NCBI GenBank assembly: GCA_038046785.1
Contig: JBBSVM010000002.1
Coordinates: 125,196 to 189,195 of the forward strand
Length of the DNA stretch: 64,000 nt
Direction: 5' to 3'
Origin: Thermoplasmatota archaeon
GTDB taxonomy: Archaea; Thermoplasmatota; E2; JACPAO01; JAHFTW01
Position 1 is the first letter of the stretch. Each line of letters starts with the position of its first letter. Below the pieces are notes generated by a model. That model searched no databases, was not told where the DNA came from, and was given only the letters and a program-made list of their open reading frames with translations. Position numbers and translations under genes: made by a program. This document shows, in pieces, positions 4,079 through 35,351 of the stretch.

Positions 4079-5368
4079 GTGCGCGGAGTGGCGTTTGGGC
4101 TCGTTGCGATGTTCATCCTGGCTGGATGCCTTGCGAGCGGGCCAGACGCCGATCGCGACGGTTTGGCCGACGAGGAAGAACGCCGAGCAAAACTCAATCC
4201 CAGCAACGCCGACAGCGACGGCGACGGAATCGAGGACGGAACTGAGCAGGACGAAGGGACCGACCCGAACGCGAGCGACAGCGACGGGGACGGCCTGGAC
4301 GACGGCACCGAGCAAGAAGAGGGGACCGACCCGAACGAGAGCGATTCCGACGGCGACGGCTCCGACGACGGCGCCGAGGTGGAAGCGCAATCCAACCCCA
4401 ATGATGCCTCCAGCGCACCGCCCTACAAACTCCCGAACGTTCCCGCTGTGGATGGCGTCAAGCTCGTCGCCGGATTGGAGGCCTTCGCGGCCGCCCACAA
4501 CGTGCGCTCCAACAACGGTCCCGACCACGTCGCGGCGCGGGACACCATCGCGTCCGCTTTCCGCAAGGCTGGGCTTGAGGTCTGGTTGCACAATTTCACC
4601 AACGGCATCGAGCAGCAGAACGTCGTCGGCATCCGCTGGGGACTGGACCGCGACCGCTGGGTCGTGGTCGCCGGCCACTACGACACGACGACGACGCTGG
4701 GCGTGGACCAGAGCTTGAGCGAGGGCATCTACGACGACGGCTCCGGCACCTGGATGACAGTGCATCTTGCGCAAGCGTACGCCAACCTGACGATGCCGCT
4801 GACCCTCGTCTTCGTCGCCTTCGACGGCGAGGAGCGCGGCCTGGAAGGCTCGGGCGCTTTCGCGGAGGCGGTTCTCACCGGTGCGACGCCCTATCCCACT
4901 GCGACGGTGGCTGGGGTGGTGGACTTGGACATGATTGGCCTCAACTGGCCCGGCATTCAGGCCCCCATCGTCTTCGTCGCCAACACGTTGGTTCTGCGTG
5001 AGCCCATCGAGGCGGCCAAAGCCGAACTTGCAATCCCGAACGATATGGTGCGCTACGACACCGGCATTGCCCTTGGCAGCAGCGACTACGCCAACTTCTT
5101 TGCCCACTCCATCCCGACCGGATTCTTCTCCAGCGACTTCGAGTACGTCGCTGCCCCGTTCGCCCCCGCACCTGTGCCCACCACCCCCGGCCTTGGCATC
5201 TATCCGTTCTGGCACCTTGCGGACACCATGGAGACGATGACGGCGATGGCGGGCACCCGGGCCAACCTCGAAGCGGGTTTCGGCACCGCAGCGGCTGTCG
5301 CCGCTCGCCTCACCCACTGGCTCGCCTCTGATTTGGGCCCCGATGAGGCCGGCACCTCCGCGGTCTGA
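4079..5368 (+). CDS. M28 metallopeptidase lipoprotein with thrombospondin-type-3-like Ca-binding repeats
   Basis: LAGC lipobox; four D.DGDG..D..E repeats; Zn ligands GHYD, DDGSG, GEERG, DLDM, FWH. Confidence 0.85.
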   Translation: MRGVAFGLVAMFILAGCLASGPDADRDGLADEEERRAKLNPSNADSDGDGIEDGTEQDEGTDPNASDSDGDGLDDGTEQEEGTDPNESDSDGDGSDDGAEVEAQSNPNDASSAPPYKLPNVPAVDGVKLVAGLEAFAAAHNVRSNNGPDHVAARDTIASAFRKAGLEVWLHNFTNGIEQQNVVGIRWGLDRDRWVVVAGHYDTTTTLGVDQSLSEGIYDDGSGTWMTVHLAQAYANLTMPLTLVFVAFDGEERGLEGSGAFAEAVLTGATPYPTATVAGVVDLDMIGLNWPGIQAPIVFVANTLVLREPIEAAKAELAIPNDMVRYDTGIALGSSDYANFFAHSIPTGFFSSDFEYVAAPFAPAPVPTTPGLGIYPFWHLADTMETMTAMAGTRANLEAGFGTAAAVAARLTHWLASDLGPDEAGTSAV

Positions 5369-5409
5369 GCACCGCAATCCTGATGTTGGCGTCCGGGTGG
5401 CCACGGTCC

Positions 5410-6462
5410 ATGCGCACCGCACTTGTCCTCCTGGCCATCGTCCTGGCTGGCTGCATGCAGACCGCCGCGACGACGGAGGAATCCCTTGTCTCGTTCCCCG
5501 CGGCACCTCTCGACGTCGACGCCGCCACAGTCGTGGACGAACTGCGCGTCTTCTCCGCCGCCCACCCGCTGCGCGTCGGCAACAGCGCCGACCACGAAGC
5601 GGCTCGCGTGGACCTTCTTGCGCGCTTTGCCGACTTGGGACTCACCACCTGGCGTCACGACTTCACGCCCGATGGCGATGGTCAACTGCCGCAAGCCAAC
5701 ATCGTTGGTCTGCAATGGGGCACCACCCACCCCGACGAGTGGGTCGTCGTCGGCGGCCATTACGATGTCGTCCCGACTCCCTCCTGCCCCGCCGCCCTCC
5801 CCGTCTGCCCCGAACAGGTGAACACACAGGGAACCTACGACGACGGCTCCGGAACCATGCTCACCGTCGGCCTCGCCGCTGCGTACAGCAAGGTCGAGAC
5901 GCCCTTCACCATCGCCTACGTCGCGTTCGACGGCGAGGAGCGCGGCCTGCAGGGCTCGCGCGCCTTTGCCGAGATGCTGGTGAGCGGAACCCCGTACGGC
6001 AACGTCACGGTGCGCGCCATGCTCGACCTCGACATGTTCGGCCTCAACTGGCCCGGCGTGGACTCCCCCATTTACTTCGATGACAACTCGCCCGAACTGA
6101 AGGCGTACGTCAAGGACGTCGCGGCCGCCATCGGCATCCCGGACGGCCTCATCCTCTACCAGGGCATCAGCCTCGGCCGCAGCGACTACGACTCGTTCTT
6201 CCAGATTGGCGCTCCGACCGGGTTCTTCATCAGCGACTTCGAACGCTTCCAGGCCCCCGCCGACGTCCCCGTCCAGGCGCCGCAGGAATCGGGCCAGGCG
6301 TACCCGTTCTGGCACCGCTACGACACCTACGATTCCATGGTGTTGATGGCGGGCTCCGAAGCGGACGTCGTGGCGGGCTTTCAGACGGCGGCCGACCTCG
6401 CGTCTGCGGTGCTCTGGCGCATGGCCGTGAGCGAAGAGCCACTCAGCTCCATCGACGTGTAG
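5410..6462 (+). CDS. M28 metallopeptidase lipoprotein (paralog)
   Basis: LAGC lipobox; GHYD, DDGSG, FDGEERGL.GS, DLDM, SDY, PFWH. Confidence 0.87.
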   Translation: MRTALVLLAIVLAGCMQTAATTEESLVSFPAAPLDVDAATVVDELRVFSAAHPLRVGNSADHEAARVDLLARFADLGLTTWRHDFTPDGDGQLPQANIVGLQWGTTHPDEWVVVGGHYDVVPTPSCPAALPVCPEQVNTQGTYDDGSGTMLTVGLAAAYSKVETPFTIAYVAFDGEERGLQGSRAFAEMLVSGTPYGNVTVRAMLDLDMFGLNWPGVDSPIYFDDNSPELKAYVKDVAAAIGIPDGLILYQGISLGRSDYDSFFQIGAPTGFFISDFERFQAPADVPVQAPQESGQAYPFWHRYDTYDSMVLMAGSEADVVAGFQTAADLASAVLWRMAVSEEPLSSIDV

Positions 6463-6718: not shown

Positions 6719-6793
6719 CGCGCCTGGTGAGATTTGAACTCACGACACCGGCCTTAGGAGGGCCGTCCCTTATCCAAGCTAGAGTACAGGCGC
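6719..6793 (-). tRNA. tRNA-Arg (anticodon CCT), no intron, CCA not encoded
   Basis: Cloverleaf: GCGCCTG/CAGGCGC acceptor stem, CGGCC-CTCCTAA-GGCCG anticodon arm, GTGAG-TTCAAAT-CTCAC T arm, discriminator G. Confidence 0.96.
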
Positions 6794-29833: not shown

Positions 29834-30463
29834 ATGCCCAGCCGTCGCGACCATGACGTTCCCGCCGCCACCATCTCGGCCACCATTGGCGTCTTCCTGA
29901 TTCTGGTGAGCTTGCCGTTCGCGGTGCTGGCCTACCAGGACCTGGAATCGAACGCCAGCGAATTCCTCGTCTCCTGGAGCGAACGCAACGCGGTGACGGA
30001 CCCGACCAGCCCGGGCCAACCGGCCGCTTCGGTGCGCATCGCCGATGGCCTTCCCGCCGTTGTCCGGATCACCTCGACCGCGTGCGCGGACTCCCCCGGT
30101 CCCGGCCAGAACTCGGCCCAGCTCACGGTCAACCTCAAGCGCACGGTGAACGGCGTCACCACCGACCTCGGCAGCAAGCAGTACACGTGCGCCACCGCCT
30201 CGGGTGACCTCGTGAGCAACCGCACGCTCGCTCCCGACGTTGGCGCCATCACCGGCCAAGACATCGCCGACGCCGCGAGCAACCTCGCCGACCGCGTCGC
30301 CGCAGGTCTCGTCACCGCCGAATACACCGCCACCGTGGTCGCCACCCGCTCGGCCGCCCAGGTGCCCGGCATCCCGCTGCCCAACCTCCAGTCCACGCTC
30401 ACCGCCACCGTCCAGCTCAGCGTGACAACCTGGGCCCCCACCCTCGCGGAGGCGGCCGAATGA
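29834..30463 (+). CDS. Hypothetical membrane-anchored exported protein
   Basis: N-terminal TM helix, Thr/Ala-rich beta domain with 2 Cys; ATGA overlap with the permease. Confidence 0.7.
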   Translation: MPSRRDHDVPAATISATIGVFLILVSLPFAVLAYQDLESNASEFLVSWSERNAVTDPTSPGQPAASVRIADGLPAVVRITSTACADSPGPGQNSAQLTVNLKRTVNGVTTDLGSKQYTCATASGDLVSNRTLAPDVGAITGQDIADAASNLADRVAAGLVTAEYTATVVATRSAAQVPGIPLPNLQSTLTATVQLSVTTWAPTLAEAAE

Positions 30464-32100
30464 CCGTCCTGCGCCGCGGCTTCGCCCGCTTGGGCTACAA
30501 GAAGAACATCGACCGCCTCCTCGAGGAGTCGCGCAGCAAGTCCGGCCTTGCCAAGACGCTTGGCAGCAAGGACCTCATCGTTCTCGGTGTCGCTGGCATC
30601 ATCGGCGCCGGCATCTTCGTCCTCATCGGCCAAGGCATTGAGAAGGCGGGCGTTGGCGTCATCCCTGCCTTCGTCGTCGCCGCCGCCATCTGCGCCGTCG
30701 CCGGCTTCGCCTACGCCGAACTCGCCGCCGCCATTCCGGCTTCAGGTTCCGCCTACGCGTACATCTACACTGCCATCGGCGAGCTGCCGGGCTGGATGGT
30801 CGCCTGGGCGCTCATCCTCGAATACGCCGTCGGCGCCGTCGCGGTCGCCATCGGCTGGCGCAACAACCTGCTGGCACTCATCAACCAGTTCAAGGACACC
30901 GACCCCGTTACCGACATCTTCGCCAACGCGGACTCGCCGGCGCTCTACTGGTTCACGCACAGCCCGCTCGAATCGGTGACGCTCACCGACGGAACGGTCC
31001 TCAATGGCATCCTGAATCTGCCCAGCATCCTCATCGTCATCCTCTGCACGCTCTTGCTGGTGCGCGGCACGAAGGAGTCGGCGAAGTTCACCTTCGTCCT
31101 CGTCATCATCAAGGTCGCCATCCTGCTGCTCGCCATCGTGGGCGGCTTCCTCGCCTTCGACGCAGCCAACTTCGATGATCCCTTCCCGCACCCCATCCCG
31201 TCGGCTCCTGACCTGCCCGACACGCGCGAATTCTTCCCCGCCATCCAAGGCGTCTTCGCGGCGGCGGCCATCATGTTCTTCGCTTACATTGGCTTCGACT
31301 CCGTCTCGACGACGGCGGAGGAGACCCGCAACCCGAAGAAGGACCTGCCGCGCGGCATCCTGGGCAGCCTGTTCATCACGACCGCCCTCTACGTCCTCGC
31401 CGCCGCGGCGCTCACCAGCGCTGCGAACTGGCAAACATTCGTCGGCGACTCCGTGGCCGCCACCAACGCCAAGGGCGAACCGTTTGGCTTCGTCTTCGAG
31501 CAGAACGGCTTCCTCGAAATCGGCGGCTTCGGATACGGCGCTCTCCTGGTGCGCATCGGCGCCCTCATCGGCACCACCTCCGTGCTCCTCGTGCTCATTC
31601 TCGGCGGTGTTCGCGTCTTCTTCAACATGAGCCGCGACGGCCTGCTGCCCTCCTGGATGAGCAAGGTCTCGGCGCGCGGAGCTCCCGCCAAAACCACCCT
31701 GCTGTACGGCGGCTTCACCGTGCTGTTCGCCGGTCTGCTCACGCTTGGCTCGGCGGTGGACCTGGTGAACATCGGAACCCTGTTCGCGTTCTTCATGGTC
31801 ATCCTCGCTGTCTGGGTGTTCCGCATCCGCCGCCCCGACGTGGAGCGGCCGTTCCGCATGCCGCTCTGGCCGGTCTTCAAGGACTCCAAGGGACGCCCCT
31901 ACCTGCCTGTGCTGAGCATGCTTGGCATGCTCGGCGTCGCCGCGCTCATCTTCAGCCTGAACGCCTTCACGCTGCTTGCGTCCGTCGTCTGGGCCGGCCT
32001 GGGCTTCATCGTCTACGCTCTCTACGGCGTGCGCAACAGCAACGAGGCGCGCGAACGCTTCGCCCTGAAGCCCGCCGCGGATGTGGACGGCGACGAGTAG
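30460..32100 (+). CDS. APC-family amino acid permease (CAT-like)
   Basis: IIGAGIFV, YAELAA.IP.SGSAY, FFAYIGFD, EETRNPK.DLP.GI, RDGLLP. Confidence 0.93.
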   Translation: MTVLRRGFARLGYKKNIDRLLEESRSKSGLAKTLGSKDLIVLGVAGIIGAGIFVLIGQGIEKAGVGVIPAFVVAAAICAVAGFAYAELAAAIPASGSAYAYIYTAIGELPGWMVAWALILEYAVGAVAVAIGWRNNLLALINQFKDTDPVTDIFANADSPALYWFTHSPLESVTLTDGTVLNGILNLPSILIVILCTLLLVRGTKESAKFTFVLVIIKVAILLLAIVGGFLAFDAANFDDPFPHPIPSAPDLPDTREFFPAIQGVFAAAAIMFFAYIGFDSVSTTAEETRNPKKDLPRGILGSLFITTALYVLAAAALTSAANWQTFVGDSVAATNAKGEPFGFVFEQNGFLEIGGFGYGALLVRIGALIGTTSVLLVLILGGVRVFFNMSRDGLLPSWMSKVSARGAPAKTTLLYGGFTVLFAGLLTLGSAVDLVNIGTLFAFFMVILAVWVFRIRRPDVERPFRMPLWPVFKDSKGRPYLPVLSMLGMLGVAALIFSLNAFTLLASVVWAGLGFIVYALYGVRNSNEARERFALKPAADVDGDE

Positions 32101-32152: not shown

Positions 32153-32497
32153 ATGACGGACCCGAACCAGCCCATCCCGCCCGCCGGCACCGCCGACGAC
32201 GAGGAAGAGTTGGACATCGAGGAGGAGCCCAAGCAGGCCCCCCGCGCCAAGGTCGCTCCCGCCAGTGCCAAGCTGGTGGACCGCGCCTGGGCCGCCCAGA
32301 AGAACCTCGAGTCGCGCATGGCCGGCCTCACCCGCGGCCGCTTCGCGCGTGTCCTCAAGATGGCGCGCAAGCCGGAGCCGGAAGAGTTCCGCCAATCCTC
32401 CATCATCGTCCTGGTCGGCATCGGCGTCATCGGCGCCTTTGGCTTCTTCACCTACCTCTTCATGCAGTGGCTCCTGAGCGCCCTCGGCGCCGCCTAA
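32153..32497 (+). CDS. secE: Protein translocase Sec61 gamma/SecE
   Basis: RVLKMARKPEPEEF + TM helix with G..GF; located upstream of spt5. Confidence 0.92.
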   Translation: MTDPNQPIPPAGTADDEEELDIEEEPKQAPRAKVAPASAKLVDRAWAAQKNLESRMAGLTRGRFARVLKMARKPEPEEFRQSSIIVLVGIGVIGAFGFFTYLFMQWLLSALGAA

Positions 32498-32603
32498 CGG
32501 AAGCCGGTCCAGCCAAACGGTGAAATAGCGGCGGTCAGTCGCGCGCTTGCTCTTTTGGGGTTTTGAACCTCCAGCGGAGCGCCAATCGAGCGCGGTGAAC
32601 CCC

Positions 32604-33296
32604 ATGGACGACAACCTCGGCATCCTCCCAACCAAGGACGAACTGGCCACGAAGGCCAAGGCAAAGACCGAGCCTGCCGCTCCCGCCGTCGTCGCCGCGC
32701 CCAAGCCCGCCAAGAAGCGCGCCAAGGACCGCAAGACCGATCTCGACGCCGAGCCGGAAGTGCGCACCGGCGCCATGCTGCTCGCGCTCAAGACCCAGGT
32801 CGGCCAGGAGCGCCGCGTCGCTGAGGCCTTCGGCGGCAAAGCGAAGCGGTTCAAGCTCCCCGTCCTCGGCCTGCTCTGGGCCACCGAGCTGCGTGGCCTC
32901 GTCTTCATCGAGACCACCGACCCGCTCGCCGTCGAGAAGGGCATCCGCGGCGTCAGCTACGCACGCGGCCTCATGAACCACAGCCTCGAAGTGCGCGACG
33001 AAGATGGCAAGGTCGTGCGCAAGAACGGCGTCACCGTCACGAAGAAGGAGTTCGTCGAGATTCCCTTCAGCGACATCAGCCGCTTCCTCACCCCTGCCTC
33101 CGCCGTCGCCAAGATTTCCGAGGGCGACATCGTCGAACTGGTCTCCGGACCGTTCCGCGGTGAGAAGGCCAAGGTCACCCGCGTCGACGACACCCGCGAA
33201 GAGATCACGGTCGAGCTCGTCGAATCGATGGTGCCCATCCCCATCACGACGAAGGGCGAGCAGGTGCGCGTTCTGCAGAAGAGCGGCGGCGCGTAG
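32604..33296 (+). CDS. spt5: Transcription elongation factor Spt5 (NusG)
   Basis: KTQVGQE, LRG.VFIE (NGN); KOW motif GDIVELVSGPFRGEKAKV. Confidence 0.93.
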   Translation: MDDNLGILPTKDELATKAKAKTEPAAPAVVAAPKPAKKRAKDRKTDLDAEPEVRTGAMLLALKTQVGQERRVAEAFGGKAKRFKLPVLGLLWATELRGLVFIETTDPLAVEKGIRGVSYARGLMNHSLEVRDEDGKVVRKNGVTVTKKEFVEIPFSDISRFLTPASAVAKISEGDIVELVSGPFRGEKAKVTRVDDTREEITVELVESMVPIPITTKGEQVRVLQKSGGA

Positions 33297-33369: not shown

Positions 33370-33483
33370 GGAAAAGAGAAACCGGCGGGGCGGGCACCCG
33401 GTTGCCCGGGTGCTGGGTGGAGTCAGGTGGGTGGTGGTTGTCGCGTACCGACGCCAATCAAGGCGTCGGCTTGCCCCGCCGGC
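33370..33483 (-). ncRNA. Candidate structured small RNA (three-way junction)
   Basis: 10-bp closing helix, two 8-bp hairpins (one with a GCAA loop), TTAT 25 nt upstream, TTTCTCTTTT directly downstream. Confidence 0.55.
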
Positions 33484-33569
33484 GCACCGTCATGCTGGCA
33501 GGTCGGCATAACAACCGTCGGGGCGGTTCCATCTTGACGAGCGGCAACAGATGGACAATTTCGCGCAAT

Positions 33570-33640: not shown

Positions 33641-33901
33641 GTGTCCGCGCGTCGCATCTGCGCCTTTGCTCTTCTCATACTCATCCTTGCCCCGGCGGTT
33701 GCGGCCGACCCCTCCAACTCCAGTTCGCCCTCCCAGCCTGACGAGGCCGCTGTGCCCTGCCCCTTGATTGAGGTGCGTCAGCCGCTTCCCGGCCATGTCG
33801 AGCCGCAGGTCTTCGTGGACCCCTTTGGCTGCTGGCAGCGCCGCGTCCTCAAGGTCACCAACTATGCCGTCCGGACCGTCAACGAACTCATCAACGGGTG
33901 A
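33641..33901 (+). CDS. Small secreted protein
   Basis: Signal peptide ending AVAA; two Cys in the mature part. Confidence 0.65.
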   Translation: MSARRICAFALLILILAPAVAADPSNSSSPSQPDEAAVPCPLIEVRQPLPGHVEPQVFVDPFGCWQRRVLKVTNYAVRTVNELING

Positions 33902-33905
33902 AGCG

Positions 33906-35351
33906 ATGCGCGTCCTGGTTCCCCTCGTCACCGCAGTACTCTTGGTCCTCCCGGTCGCCCACGCCGAACTGCGCGCAGCCAGCGCTTCCTACGATCAGCC
34001 CTCCAGCCTCGAAGGGCCCTTGGAGCTGCTCCAGCTGCGCACCGATGTGGGCGGCGGCGCACCCTGGGTCTCCTTTGAGGCGGCCGACATCGAGGCAGTG
34101 CAGTACAACTCCACCTACGTCGTCTCCGACCGGGGGAGTCCCGCTTCCTACCAGACGCAGGGTCCCACCGGAACCCCGTACGATCTGGGCGTCGGGCGGG
34201 CCCGCTTGGACGCCTCGCGCGGCCTCTACCGCCTGAACCTCTACGCGCCGAGCGGCATGGGGTTGCGCGCCCATGCTGACCAGGGCACCCTCGTCGCCAC
34301 GGATGGGACCGATTTGTCGCGTGGAGGTTTGGGCCTCGGCGGCAGCGACCCCACCTGCGCCGACCCTCGGCCCAACCTTGGGCAGTTCTGCCGCATCGAA
34401 CGGCAGGGCCCCATCCTCCTGCACAGCACGGAGGGACGCAGCGCCGAAGCGGTGGTGTACGGCGACACGCTCATCCTCGAACTGTTCGGCTTGGACATGG
34501 CGGTGGACGGCGAACGCGACATGACCCTGCAGAGCGGCCGCTTCCCCGCCGCGGTCGCCCCAGTGACCGGGCCCGTGCGGCAAGAGACCGAAGTGTTCGT
34601 CCGCCTCATCCTCACCGCGGCAACCGTCACCCTCGCAGCGGATGGCGAAGCGATGCTGGAGTGGGCGGCGCGCAAAGTCACGACCCACCACGAAGGCTCA
34701 CTCACCCTCAACTCCGCGTACGGCACGGCGCCGGGCTCGGAGGGCATCCAGCTCAACGGCGAACGCTACATCGCAGCGGCGGGCCTGGACTTCCTCCTCA
34801 CCCCGTCCTCCGGCGGTGCGCTCGAGGCAGAGCCAGCCGCGGCGAGCGCGCCCGCCGCGACCAACGCGGTGCCGGCCGCCGTCACCGCCAGCGCCCCCTT
34901 CGTCCTCCTCGCCATCGCGTTCCTTCTCGTGGGCCTTCTCGCGCTGCGGCTGCGCCCCGCCAGCCTCGGCGCCATGGAGCAGGCCATCACCCAGGGTCGC
35001 CACCGCCGTGCCGCCCGCCTGGCCGCCCGGCTCCTGCGCCGCGACCCAACCCAGGAGGATGCTCGACTCGGCCGCGCCATCGCACTCACTCGCTCCGGCC
35101 GCGCGGCGCGCGCCATCCGCGAGGTGGCGGCCCACCTGAAACGAGCGGAGCCCAGCGACGGTTCACTCCACTATGTCCTGGGCCTCGCTCTTCTGGAGAA
35201 GCGGCGTTCTTCGGAAGCGCGCGCCGCCCTGCGTGAGGCGGTGCGCCGCACCCCGGAATTGGAAGCGGATGTGCGCGCCCGCGCTTTCGACGCTCTGCCC
35301 GTCGCATCGCAGCCCGCCCGCGCCTCCAAGGAGGGGGTTGGCTATGTCTGA
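33906..35351 (+). CDS. Single-pass membrane protein with extracellular domain and cytoplasmic TPR repeats
   Basis: Signal peptide; TM PFVLLAIAFLLVGLLAL; TPR-like ARLGRAIAL, LHYVLGLAL...EAVRRTP. Confidence 0.78.
   Translation: MRVLVPLVTAVLLVLPVAHAELRAASASYDQPSSLEGPLELLQLRTDVGGGAPWVSFEAADIEAVQYNSTYVVSDRGSPASYQTQGPTGTPYDLGVGRARLDASRGLYRLNLYAPSGMGLRAHADQGTLVATDGTDLSRGGLGLGGSDPTCADPRPNLGQFCRIERQGPILLHSTEGRSAEAVVYGDTLILELFGLDMAVDGERDMTLQSGRFPAAVAPVTGPVRQETEVFVRLILTAATVTLAADGEAMLEWAARKVTTHHEGSLTLNSAYGTAPGSEGIQLNGERYIAAAGLDFLLTPSSGGALEAEPAAASAPAATNAVPAAVTASAPFVLLAIAFLLVGLLALRLRPASLGAMEQAITQGRHRRAARLAARLLRRDPTQEDARLGRAIALTRSGRAARAIREVAAHLKRAEPSDGSLHYVLGLALLEKRRSSEARAALREAVRRTPELEADVRARAFDALPVASQPARASKEGVGYV

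Follow-up and report, generated by a model that had tools for sequence, protein, structure and literature searches.

Introduction

In the bacterial small RNAs 6C, RsaE/RoxS and CcsR, unpaired C-rich motifs pair with the G-rich ribosome-binding regions of several mRNAs. The Methanosarcina mazei RNAs sRNA41 and sRNA162 act in trans and mask ribosome-binding sites, and base pairing is the usual mode among the archaeal sRNAs that have been characterised. Sponge RNAs such as CsrB and CrcZ carry repeated short motifs. To our knowledge, archaeal sRNAs with comparative support are very few, and those from uncultured lineages are almost none.

The locus described here, 33484..33372 on the minus strand of the window (the whole 64,000-nt stretch of DNA that was analysed), is in all likelihood a stand-alone archaeal gene for a stable non-coding RNA of approximately 100–110 nt. 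The RNA family is new to description, and its host belongs to an uncultured archaeal family, designated f1, with genera numbered g1 to g11 in what follows.

Results

Anatomy of the locus

The minus strand of region 33370-33512 was folded with RNAfold, and the predicted structure is obtained from the minimum free energy and centroid solutions alike, at -71 kcal/mol. The mean for 200 dinucleotide shuffles was -51.2 ± 3.8 kcal/mol (z = -5.19), and none of the 200 was as stable. For the plus strand the fold is less remarkable (z = -2.49), and no T-run comes right after the structure. The features of the locus and of its surroundings are collected in Table 1. A GC-rich closing helix, P1, which measures 11 bp in the window copy, clamps both ends of the RNA and encloses hairpin P2, an unpaired C/A-rich strand and hairpin P3. 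The unpaired strand of the window copy contains four CCACC or five to six ACC repeats. The sequence TTAT at 33511-33508(-) is situated about 25–28 nt 5' of the first base of P1, a spacing from TATA box to start that is typical for archaeal promoters.

Table 1. Features of the sRNA locus and its neighbourhood, in window coordinates
Feature	Position	Strand	Basis or remark
sRNA fold: P1 + P2 + unpaired strand + P3	33483..33382	-	RNAfold
P1, closing helix, 5' strand, GCCGGCGGGGC = (G)CCGGCGGGGC	33483/33482-33473	-	fold and covariation
P1, 3' strand, GCCCCGCCGG	33391-33382	-	fold and covariation
P2 hairpin, 9 bp, GCCGACGCC-UUGAUU-GGCGUCGGU	33470-33447	-	fold and covariation
Unpaired C/A-rich strand, 33 nt, ACGCGACAACCACCACCCACCUGACUCCACCCA	33446-33414	-	unpaired in MFE and centroid
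P3 hairpin, 8 bp, GCACCCGG-GCAA-CCGGGUGC	33413-33394	-	fold and covariation
Oligo-T terminator, TTTCTCTTTT	33381-33372	-	sequence; directly 3' of P1
Second T-run, TTTTTT	33351-33346	-	sequence
TATA-like box, GTTATGCC	33512-33505	-	sequence; same spacing in other copies
Promoter-upstream motif, TCGTCAAGATGGAACC	33540-33525	-	upstream regions of 17 copies lined up
Amino-acid permease	30460-32100	+	
SecE	32153-32497	+	
spt5, NGN + KOW domains	32547-33296	+	Pfam matches; convergent neighbour
TPR membrane protein	33768-35351	+	
Ms_AS-4 (RF02464), best Rfam score, chance level	33377-33458	-	15.7 against gathering 50 bits, E = 9.3

A box of the form TTAT(C/G)C, TTAAGC or TTTAT is found at a fixed distance of about 25–30 nt in all copies of the element that were recovered from other genomes (see below), and T-runs follow P1 in most copies, those of g6 excepted. 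The motif upstream of the promoter has a consensus among the relatives of about TCGGCAAT-N3-GGATAC and is fixed approximately 15 nt 5' of the TATA-like box; it is recognisable in g1 and g10 and weaker in g4 and g6. This motif may be a transcription-factor site, and its conservation suggests a regulated promoter. Transcription of the gene, and the points at which its RNA begins and ends, we infer.

The RNA is assigned to the minus strand because G-U and U-G pairs within P1 would become A-C mismatches if read on the plus strand, and because of the constant spacing of the promoter box and the T-runs. A coding peptide or attenuator leader was considered and rejected: the strand would read as runs of Thr, His or Pro, and the 17 copies examined share neither a start codon nor a reading frame.

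These observations bear out the original prediction of a structured minus-strand RNA standing alone with its own promoter and oligo-T terminator, in which the P1 pairing, the hairpins, the GTTAT-type box and the T-run had all been correctly placed. The unpaired C/A-rich stretch is present, at 33 rather than 34 nt, and the GNRA loop proposed for the second hairpin exists as GCAA in the window copy and is not kept in the relatives.

Homologues and distribution

Homologues were identified in 18 of the 32 genomes of family f1, representing 6 of its 11 genera (9 of 13 genomes in g1, all three in g6, two of four in g4, both in g2, and the single genomes of g9 and g10). A pattern scan of JGI metagenomes added four contigs bearing the sRNA, one of them cut at its 3' end. 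BLAST against 40 relatives returned one full-length match (G006, 81% identity), and seven further congeners matched in the unpaired strand only, with 89–100% identity. On inspection, the flanks in these seven were found to differ in sequence and to form the same helices.

Three covariance models were built: R1 from P1 plus sequence (9 copies), R2 from P1, P2 and P3 (5 copies), and R3 from the 13-sequence alignment produced by R2. Searching 38 genomes of the order with R3 gave nine hits in g1 (E <= 1.3e-10), three in the three g6 genomes (E 5.6e-7, 0.005 and 0.058), two in the four of g4 (E 0.1 and 0.6), one in the g9 genome (E 0.36) and one in the two of g2 (E 0.41). With R1, the g10 copy came up at E 0.3, as did, at E 0.5, a candidate (G029) belonging to a second family, f2. 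Weak hits were kept only where the full anatomy of TATA-like box, P1, P2 and CCACC-rich strand accompanied them; model hits in L032, L033, L034 and L195 fall in coding sequence and were discarded as false positives.

The 16-mer ACGACAACCACCCACC of the unpaired strand, which is nearly invariant, was sought with at most one mismatch in 197 genomes of the class. It matched once each in 12 f1 genomes, adding one g2 genome (G023) to the set; in another of the 12, G046, there is no structure around the match. Four genomes of family f4 matched as well, with one mismatch each and none of the anatomy, and these are taken as chance level because a reversed-pattern control matched about 20 genomes. In a sample of 151 genomes of the class, R1 gave no hit beyond f1. 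A scan of genomes with a 15-base pattern gave at least 120 chance matches in unrelated organisms, the one archaeal match that was inspected, in L047, being coding. A degenerate-looking copy is located 79 nt past spt5 in G002. No copy was found in g3, g5, g7, g8 and g11 (8 genomes) or in G001, G007 and G009, among MAGs that are 65–95% complete. Full-text searches of the literature, assessed through listings and abstracts, brought up no description of this RNA or of its core sequence.

Covariation of the helices and conservation of the single strand

All 17 copies examined fold on their own into P1, P2 and an unpaired C/A strand, with or without P3, and do so with z-scores of -2.8 to -5.6 relative to mononucleotide shuffles. 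The unpaired strand ranges from 16 to 35 nt in these folds and is G-poor. In a MAFFT alignment of 12 g1-type copies, P1 is 96.5% paired with compensatory changes in four pairs, and its covariation score of 0.319 compares with 0.191 ± 0.026 for shuffles, none of 500 scoring as high. Across the alignments, the 12 pairs of P1 are paired in 96.5–98.7% of cells, with compensatory changes in 4–5 of them.

For the full structure, the model-guided alignment of 13 sequences comprises 31 pairs that are 94.4% paired, and compensatory changes are seen in 23 of the 31 (77 cells). The corresponding covariation score is 0.555 against 0.195 for shuffles (0/500 as high), to be read with the caution that this alignment was fitted to the structure and that related sequences inflate shuffle tests. 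Registers slid by 1–3 columns score at most 0.133, and both this control and the MAFFT-based result for P1 are independent of the fitting. P2 has compensatory changes in all 13 of its pairs; its sequence is not alignable between subgroups, and the hairpin is always at the same place. P3 has compensatory changes in four of the five modelled pairs, varies in length, and is weak or absent in some relatives. The shared fold, formed by each copy on its own, and the covariation of the helices are more than chance. The homologue and covariation check that accompanied the original prediction thus came out in its favour.

The GNRA loop and the sequences of P2 and P3 are not conserved; the single strand is. 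The 16-mer is exact in 10 genomes from four genera while the helix sequences differ between genera, and the Spt5 proteins of the genomes that carry it are about 54–71% identical to that of the window. Within g1 the conserved stretch reaches about 30 nt, CGACAACCACC(ACC)CACCUGACUCCACC. Every copy, the divergent ones of g9, g10, f2 and G002 included, has three to six ACC/CCACC units, spaced by 0–1 nt. On these data, the helices provide a scaffold and the work is left to the strand. The function is under strong selection, since promoter, terminator and covarying clamp are maintained and the strand is preserved letter for letter across genera.

Genomic context

The host genome has 66% GC, and its 16S rRNA reaches 1454.8 bits with the archaeal SSU model. 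The sRNA gene lies tail-to-tail with spt5, 75 nt separating the spt5 stop codon from the sRNA T-run, and a gene for an HTH regulator follows the TPR gene. The secE-spt5 pair is convergent with the sRNA gene in 14 of the 18 genomes, at distances of 20–970 nt, often 20–170 nt. This arrangement is lacking in G010 and throughout g6 (three genomes). Of the latter, G017 carries both loci on one contig with 78 kb between the sRNA gene and spt5, and the remaining two have them on separate contigs. The sRNA of G010 is followed by a tyrosine-integrase gene, and no spt5 was found in this 65%-complete MAG. Being unlinked in g6, the sRNA needs no spt5 in cis, and the position of the g6 gene away from spt5 supports action in trans. 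Besides secE and spt5, the flanks hold no conserved partner gene, and most of the other ORFs there are without a Pfam family.

On the plus strand between spt5 and the next ORF, the only terminator-like site is at 33647-33673, beyond the sRNA gene, for which reason transcription from spt5 may run through the gene in antisense. That the element might act solely as the spt5 terminator, or be a dispersed repeat, had been named from the outset as outcomes that would overturn the prediction. The former is contradicted by the g6 copies and by the plus strand's lack of a T-run after the structure, and the latter was ruled out, the element being single copy in the 1.70-Mb, 10-contig genome.

Relation to known RNA classes

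Scanning the window with Rfam 15 (4227 models) returned, at gathering level, a tRNA at 6719-6793 only and no family at the locus, where even E <= 10 yielded just four chance-level matches. Besides Ms_AS-4, a weak local alignment at chance level to a family of which the sRNA is not a member, these include IS1222_FSE (15.1 against 45 bits) and RRE (9.3 against 104 bits). ARAGORN found no tRNA or tmRNA gene at 33370-33512.

In C/D sRNAs, boxes C (RUGAUGA) and D (CUGA) form a K-turn close to the ends of the RNA, and guide sequences can pair with rRNA or tRNA. Inspection of the 17 copies by eye revealed neither a C box nor a K-turn, and CUGA, present in g1 and g10 copies only and inside the strand, is absent from g2, g4 and g6. 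The original view that the RNA is not a tRNA, 5S, SRP or C/D RNA is therefore upheld by the Rfam and ARAGORN results and by the missing C box. In H/ACA sRNAs a hairpin contains a large internal loop, the pseudouridylation pocket, along with a K-turn or K-loop, and the ACA box lies about 14–16 nt 3' of that loop; the helix of P2 is nearly continuous and offers no such pocket, and ACA is missing in the g10 and f2 copies. Y RNAs and YrlA occur together with a Ro60 protein and have a terminal stem whose conserved bulge binds Ro; this class was rejected given that the 94.8%-complete genome encodes no TROVE-domain (Ro60) protein, positive controls having been detected. Retron, defence-RT and telomerase RNAs serve a reverse transcriptase as template, its gene being usually adjacent; these were rejected given that the about 95%-complete genome has no RVT_1 match and the locus no adjacent polymerase gene. 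A cis-regulatory leader or riboswitch, which would precede a regulated gene on its own strand, does not fit either: beyond the element come T-runs and then spt5 in antisense, with no conserved gene downstream.

Search for pairing targets

The 3' end of the 16S rRNA is GGAUCACCUCCU, and the sRNA strand, which contains CACCU and CUCC, bears a partial likeness to an anti-SD sequence. Start regions, taken as -18..-4, were examined for 667 starts that have a stop codon close upstream to delimit them. There, GGAGG and GGUGA show a 3–4 fold enrichment. The complement of CCACC, GGUGG, does not: 20 occurrences were seen against about 19.5 expected from its density in coding sequence. The difference in duplex energy of the strand between start regions and internal coding sequence was 1.2 kcal/mol, versus 1.3–1.8 for three shuffled strands. 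The two best start-region matches, (A)GUCAGGUGG and UCAGGUGGG, are SD-like and lie at -15..-5 of ATG codons. A 10-nt match around the translation start of a surface protein of 1282 aa (C1:25682) is within chance expectation for the host's own genome.

Complementary runs of at least 11 nt, with G-U pairs allowed, number 76 in the host's own genome, including the gene's own opposite strand, compared with 68 for the reversed control. No second locus matching at least 17/19 was found in the 32 family genomes. The 47 tRNAs show no more complementarity than chance would give. In the 16S rRNA, one complementary run of 10 nt with three G-U pairs was seen (7 nt in the control); it was set aside because the segment is missing from g2, g4 and g6. 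A 12-nt complement in the loop of a G-rich hairpin after tRNA-Leu (C4:55235) was likewise dismissed as chance, not being conserved even in the nearest relative.

Two of the roles originally suggested for the strand consequently fare badly. Pairing of CCACC with GGUG-type SD sequences finds no backing in start regions, where the strand does no better than shuffles, and a guide or template function is countered by the absence of any target of guide or template length elsewhere and of a reverse transcriptase. The negative pairing tests rest on crude gene starts (own ORFs with a GC3 filter) and are weak for that reason; they lower the likelihood of short-seed pairing without removing it.

Discussion

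Mode of action

We propose, with a probability of roughly 0.4, that the RNA is a trans-acting sRNA whose displayed strand pairs by short seeds with G-rich RNA. The helices would provide only a nuclease-resistant scaffold, P1 serving as the clamp with P2 and usually P3 stacked inside it, and the displayed strand would be the working part. Its seeds CCACC, CACCU and CUCC could pair with several RNAs, for example at AGGUG- or GGAG-type ribosome-binding regions, in a mode akin to that of the C-rich-motif sRNAs from high-GC and Gram-positive bacteria. The 3' UTR of a read-through spt5 transcript would be a perfectly complementary cis-antisense partner as well. This proposal is put foremost because RNAs of this sort most often act by seed pairing and because the strand has CACCU and CUCC in common with the 16S tail. 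Against pairing, it may be observed that near-invariance over 16–30 nt and short repeated motifs suit a protein platform equally.

The main rival reading, quite conceivable if still doubtful, is that the RNA binds protein as a sponge or as a subunit of an RNP, the clamp displaying its three to six ACC/CCACC units as a multivalent platform for a single-stranded RNA-binding protein that it would titrate or assemble. Candidates would be oligomeric or multi-domain proteins, such as those with KH domains (NusA, aCPSF1, Dim2), an Sm-like ring or Spt5-KOW; KH domains prefer C-rich 4-mers, and we know of no binder of ACC/CCACC in archaea. The persistence of at least three repeats in every copy, including those whose strand is otherwise divergent (g9, g10, f2 and G002), agrees with such a platform, as do the 16–30 nt that stay invariant while all helices are rewritten, the lack of a long RNA target or start-region preference, and the spt5 adjacency in 14 of 18 genomes. 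However, we found no gene for a candidate protein that accompanies the RNA from genome to genome, linkage to spt5 is by convergence and not within an operon, and is lost in g6, and characterised archaeal sRNAs mostly base-pair. A more specific and rather unlikely variant is an unrecognised archaeal RNP core, in which the whole invariant (ACC)n/CCACC strand, similar to tRNA 3' ends (…CCACCA) repeated in series, would be bound by a conserved component of transcription or translation. Spt5/NusA-type factors, suggested by the spt5 linkage, an enzyme that recognises tRNA CCA ends, or a ribosomal site are candidates. Were this so, the RNA would be a global regulator of a kind undescribed in archaea, the counterpart of 6S, CsrB or Y RNAs.

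The recurrent tail-to-tail arrangement with spt5, often at 20–170 nt, and the plus-strand terminator-like site lying only beyond the sRNA could alternatively point to an antisense or 3'-end element acting in cis on the secE-spt5 operon, which would set 3'-end formation or stability of the spt5 mRNA and leave the conserved strand incidental. We regard this as improbable, since the three g6 genomes keep the core exactly with spt5 78 kb off or on another contig, the gap to spt5 is variable, at 20–970 nt, and pure antisense requires neither an invariant sequence nor covarying helices. Telomerase and defence-RT RNAs combine a closing helix with a boundary hairpin and a C/A-rich template, and the architecture and composition here, together with CUGA and ACA within the strand, would accommodate a template or guide RNA, whether a telomerase-RNA-like core, a defence-RT ncRNA, or a C/D or H/ACA guide. 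That reading is largely refuted, and very improbable, in a genome with neither RVT_1 nor an adjacent polymerase gene, for an RNA with no C box, K-turn or pocket in P2 and no complementarity to rRNA or tRNA above chance, at a locus that is a conserved chromosomal neighbourhood and no defence island. GC-rich genomes do fold well by chance, but a fortuitous inverted repeat in an intergenic spacer, giving no functional RNA, is scarcely credible beside z = -5.2, occurrence in 18 genomes of six genera, compensatory changes in 23 of 31 pairs and a promoter spacing that is kept.

Whichever partner the strand may have, the sRNA is ready to enter RNA family databases, and its ACC/CCACC strand offers a defined bait for an archaeal RNA-binding protein or a regulon. 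Should that partner turn out to be part of the machinery of transcription or translation, archaeal gene control would gain a new layer.

Comparison with known systems

Among described RNAs, 6C/B11 of Actinobacteria, RsaE/RoxS of Bacillales and CcsR of Alphaproteobacteria share with the sRNA a size of about 100 nt, an own promoter and terminator, stable hairpins and conserved C-rich motifs, and 6C comes from high-GC genomes as well. These RNAs are bacterial, however, and their C-runs reside in hairpin loops or between two hairpins, whereas here one C/A strand of 21–35 nt is held within a closed three-way junction. There is no similarity to them in sequence or by covariance model, and SD-directed pairing is unsupported by the start tests here. 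The M. mazei sRNA41 and sRNA162 are likewise archaeal stand-alone genes in which hairpins flank a conserved single-stranded interaction region, but they are not homologous and belong to another phylogenetic group, and we know of no closing-helix clamp described for them.

CsrB/RsmZ, with GGA, and CrcZ, with A-rich motifs, resemble the sRNA in presenting a repeated motif of 3–5 nt unpaired on a scaffold, the motifs being invariant and the helices variable. They differ in that the sRNA has only three to six repeats on one continuous strand, in place of many hairpin loops. Telomerase and RT-associated RNAs are alike in having a helix that encloses the core, a 5' boundary hairpin, a C/A-rich single strand and a 3' hairpin, a resemblance of shape only, in a genome without a reverse transcriptase and at a locus with no linkage to a polymerase gene. 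On this comparison, the function of the sRNA looks most like that of the C-rich-motif sRNAs or of the sponge RNAs, and the sRNA itself is a member of none of these groups.

Sequence context of the sRNA gene

Upstream of the TATA-like box of the sRNA gene, and at a fixed distance from it in several genera, lies a conserved motif of approximately TCGGCAAT-N3-GGATAC, to which a transcription factor may bind. Coordinates of this and the other features are collected in the table. The Spt5 protein encoded by the convergent gene in the window carries an A/K/P-rich N-terminal extension of about 70 residues ahead of its NGN domain, and the open frames of spt5 in relatives, at 234–240 aa, are similar to that of the window.

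Features in the window, elsewhere in its genome and in relatives (L-numbers denote loci or contig pieces from relatives or from the same genome; C1 and C4 are contigs of that genome)
Feature	Location	Strand	Remarks
spt5	window 32547-33296	+	249 aa, or 230 aa when counted from the Atlas record's start
Promoter-upstream motif	window 33525-33540	-	also at the equivalent place in L003-L008, L013, L029, L156, L157, L159
Hairpin loop GGGUGGUGGUUG after tRNA-Leu	C4:55235-55246 (L164)	+	complementarity to the sRNA strand
Gene for 1282-aa secreted or surface-type protein	C1:25682-29528	+	
Tyrosine-recombinase (Phage_integrase) gene	L007:61-1221	-	genome G010
Repeated tRNA-Leu 3' end	L166, L169, L172		downstream of tRNA-Leu(taa) orthologues

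Candidate pairing partners of the C/A-rich strand

Four copies of CCACC fall inside 22 nt of the unpaired strand of the sRNA (33416-33437, minus strand). The word is over-represented in the window as a whole (291 matches, versus 185 ± 13 in shuffles), and the cluster is notable through its density and not through the word itself. A perfect complement to 12 nt of the strand occurs within the same genome as the loop of a hairpin downstream of tRNA-Leu; this loop is conserved in no congener. The top match among the start regions of the genome is AGUCAGGUGG, which is complementary over 10 nt to CCACCUGACU of the sRNA and lies at positions -14 to -5 relative to the ATG of the 1282-aa protein. On another contig, C5:66596 has a similar sequence, UCAGGUGGG, upstream of its ATG. 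Both start-region matches are inside chance expectation.

A tmRNA call in the window

At 5007-5419 on the minus strand, ARAGORN predicts a 'tmRNA' of 413 nt that would encode a tag peptide. The call is probably a false positive: the organism is an archaeon, and at gathering level Rfam shows no match to a tmRNA.

Possible traces of integration

In the 65%-complete genome G010, the place taken by spt5 in other genomes is occupied by the tyrosine-recombinase gene, which shares its strand with the sRNA gene and begins 246 nt beyond it on the downstream side. Three relatives carry a second copy of the tRNA-Leu gene's 3' end (e.g. GAATCCGTCCTCCCGCA) about 80–100 nt downstream, a repeat that looks like an att duplication left by integrated elements. 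tRNA genes serve as integration sites, and the integrase gene beside the sRNA gene suggests that the 3' end of the latter may be used in a similar manner.
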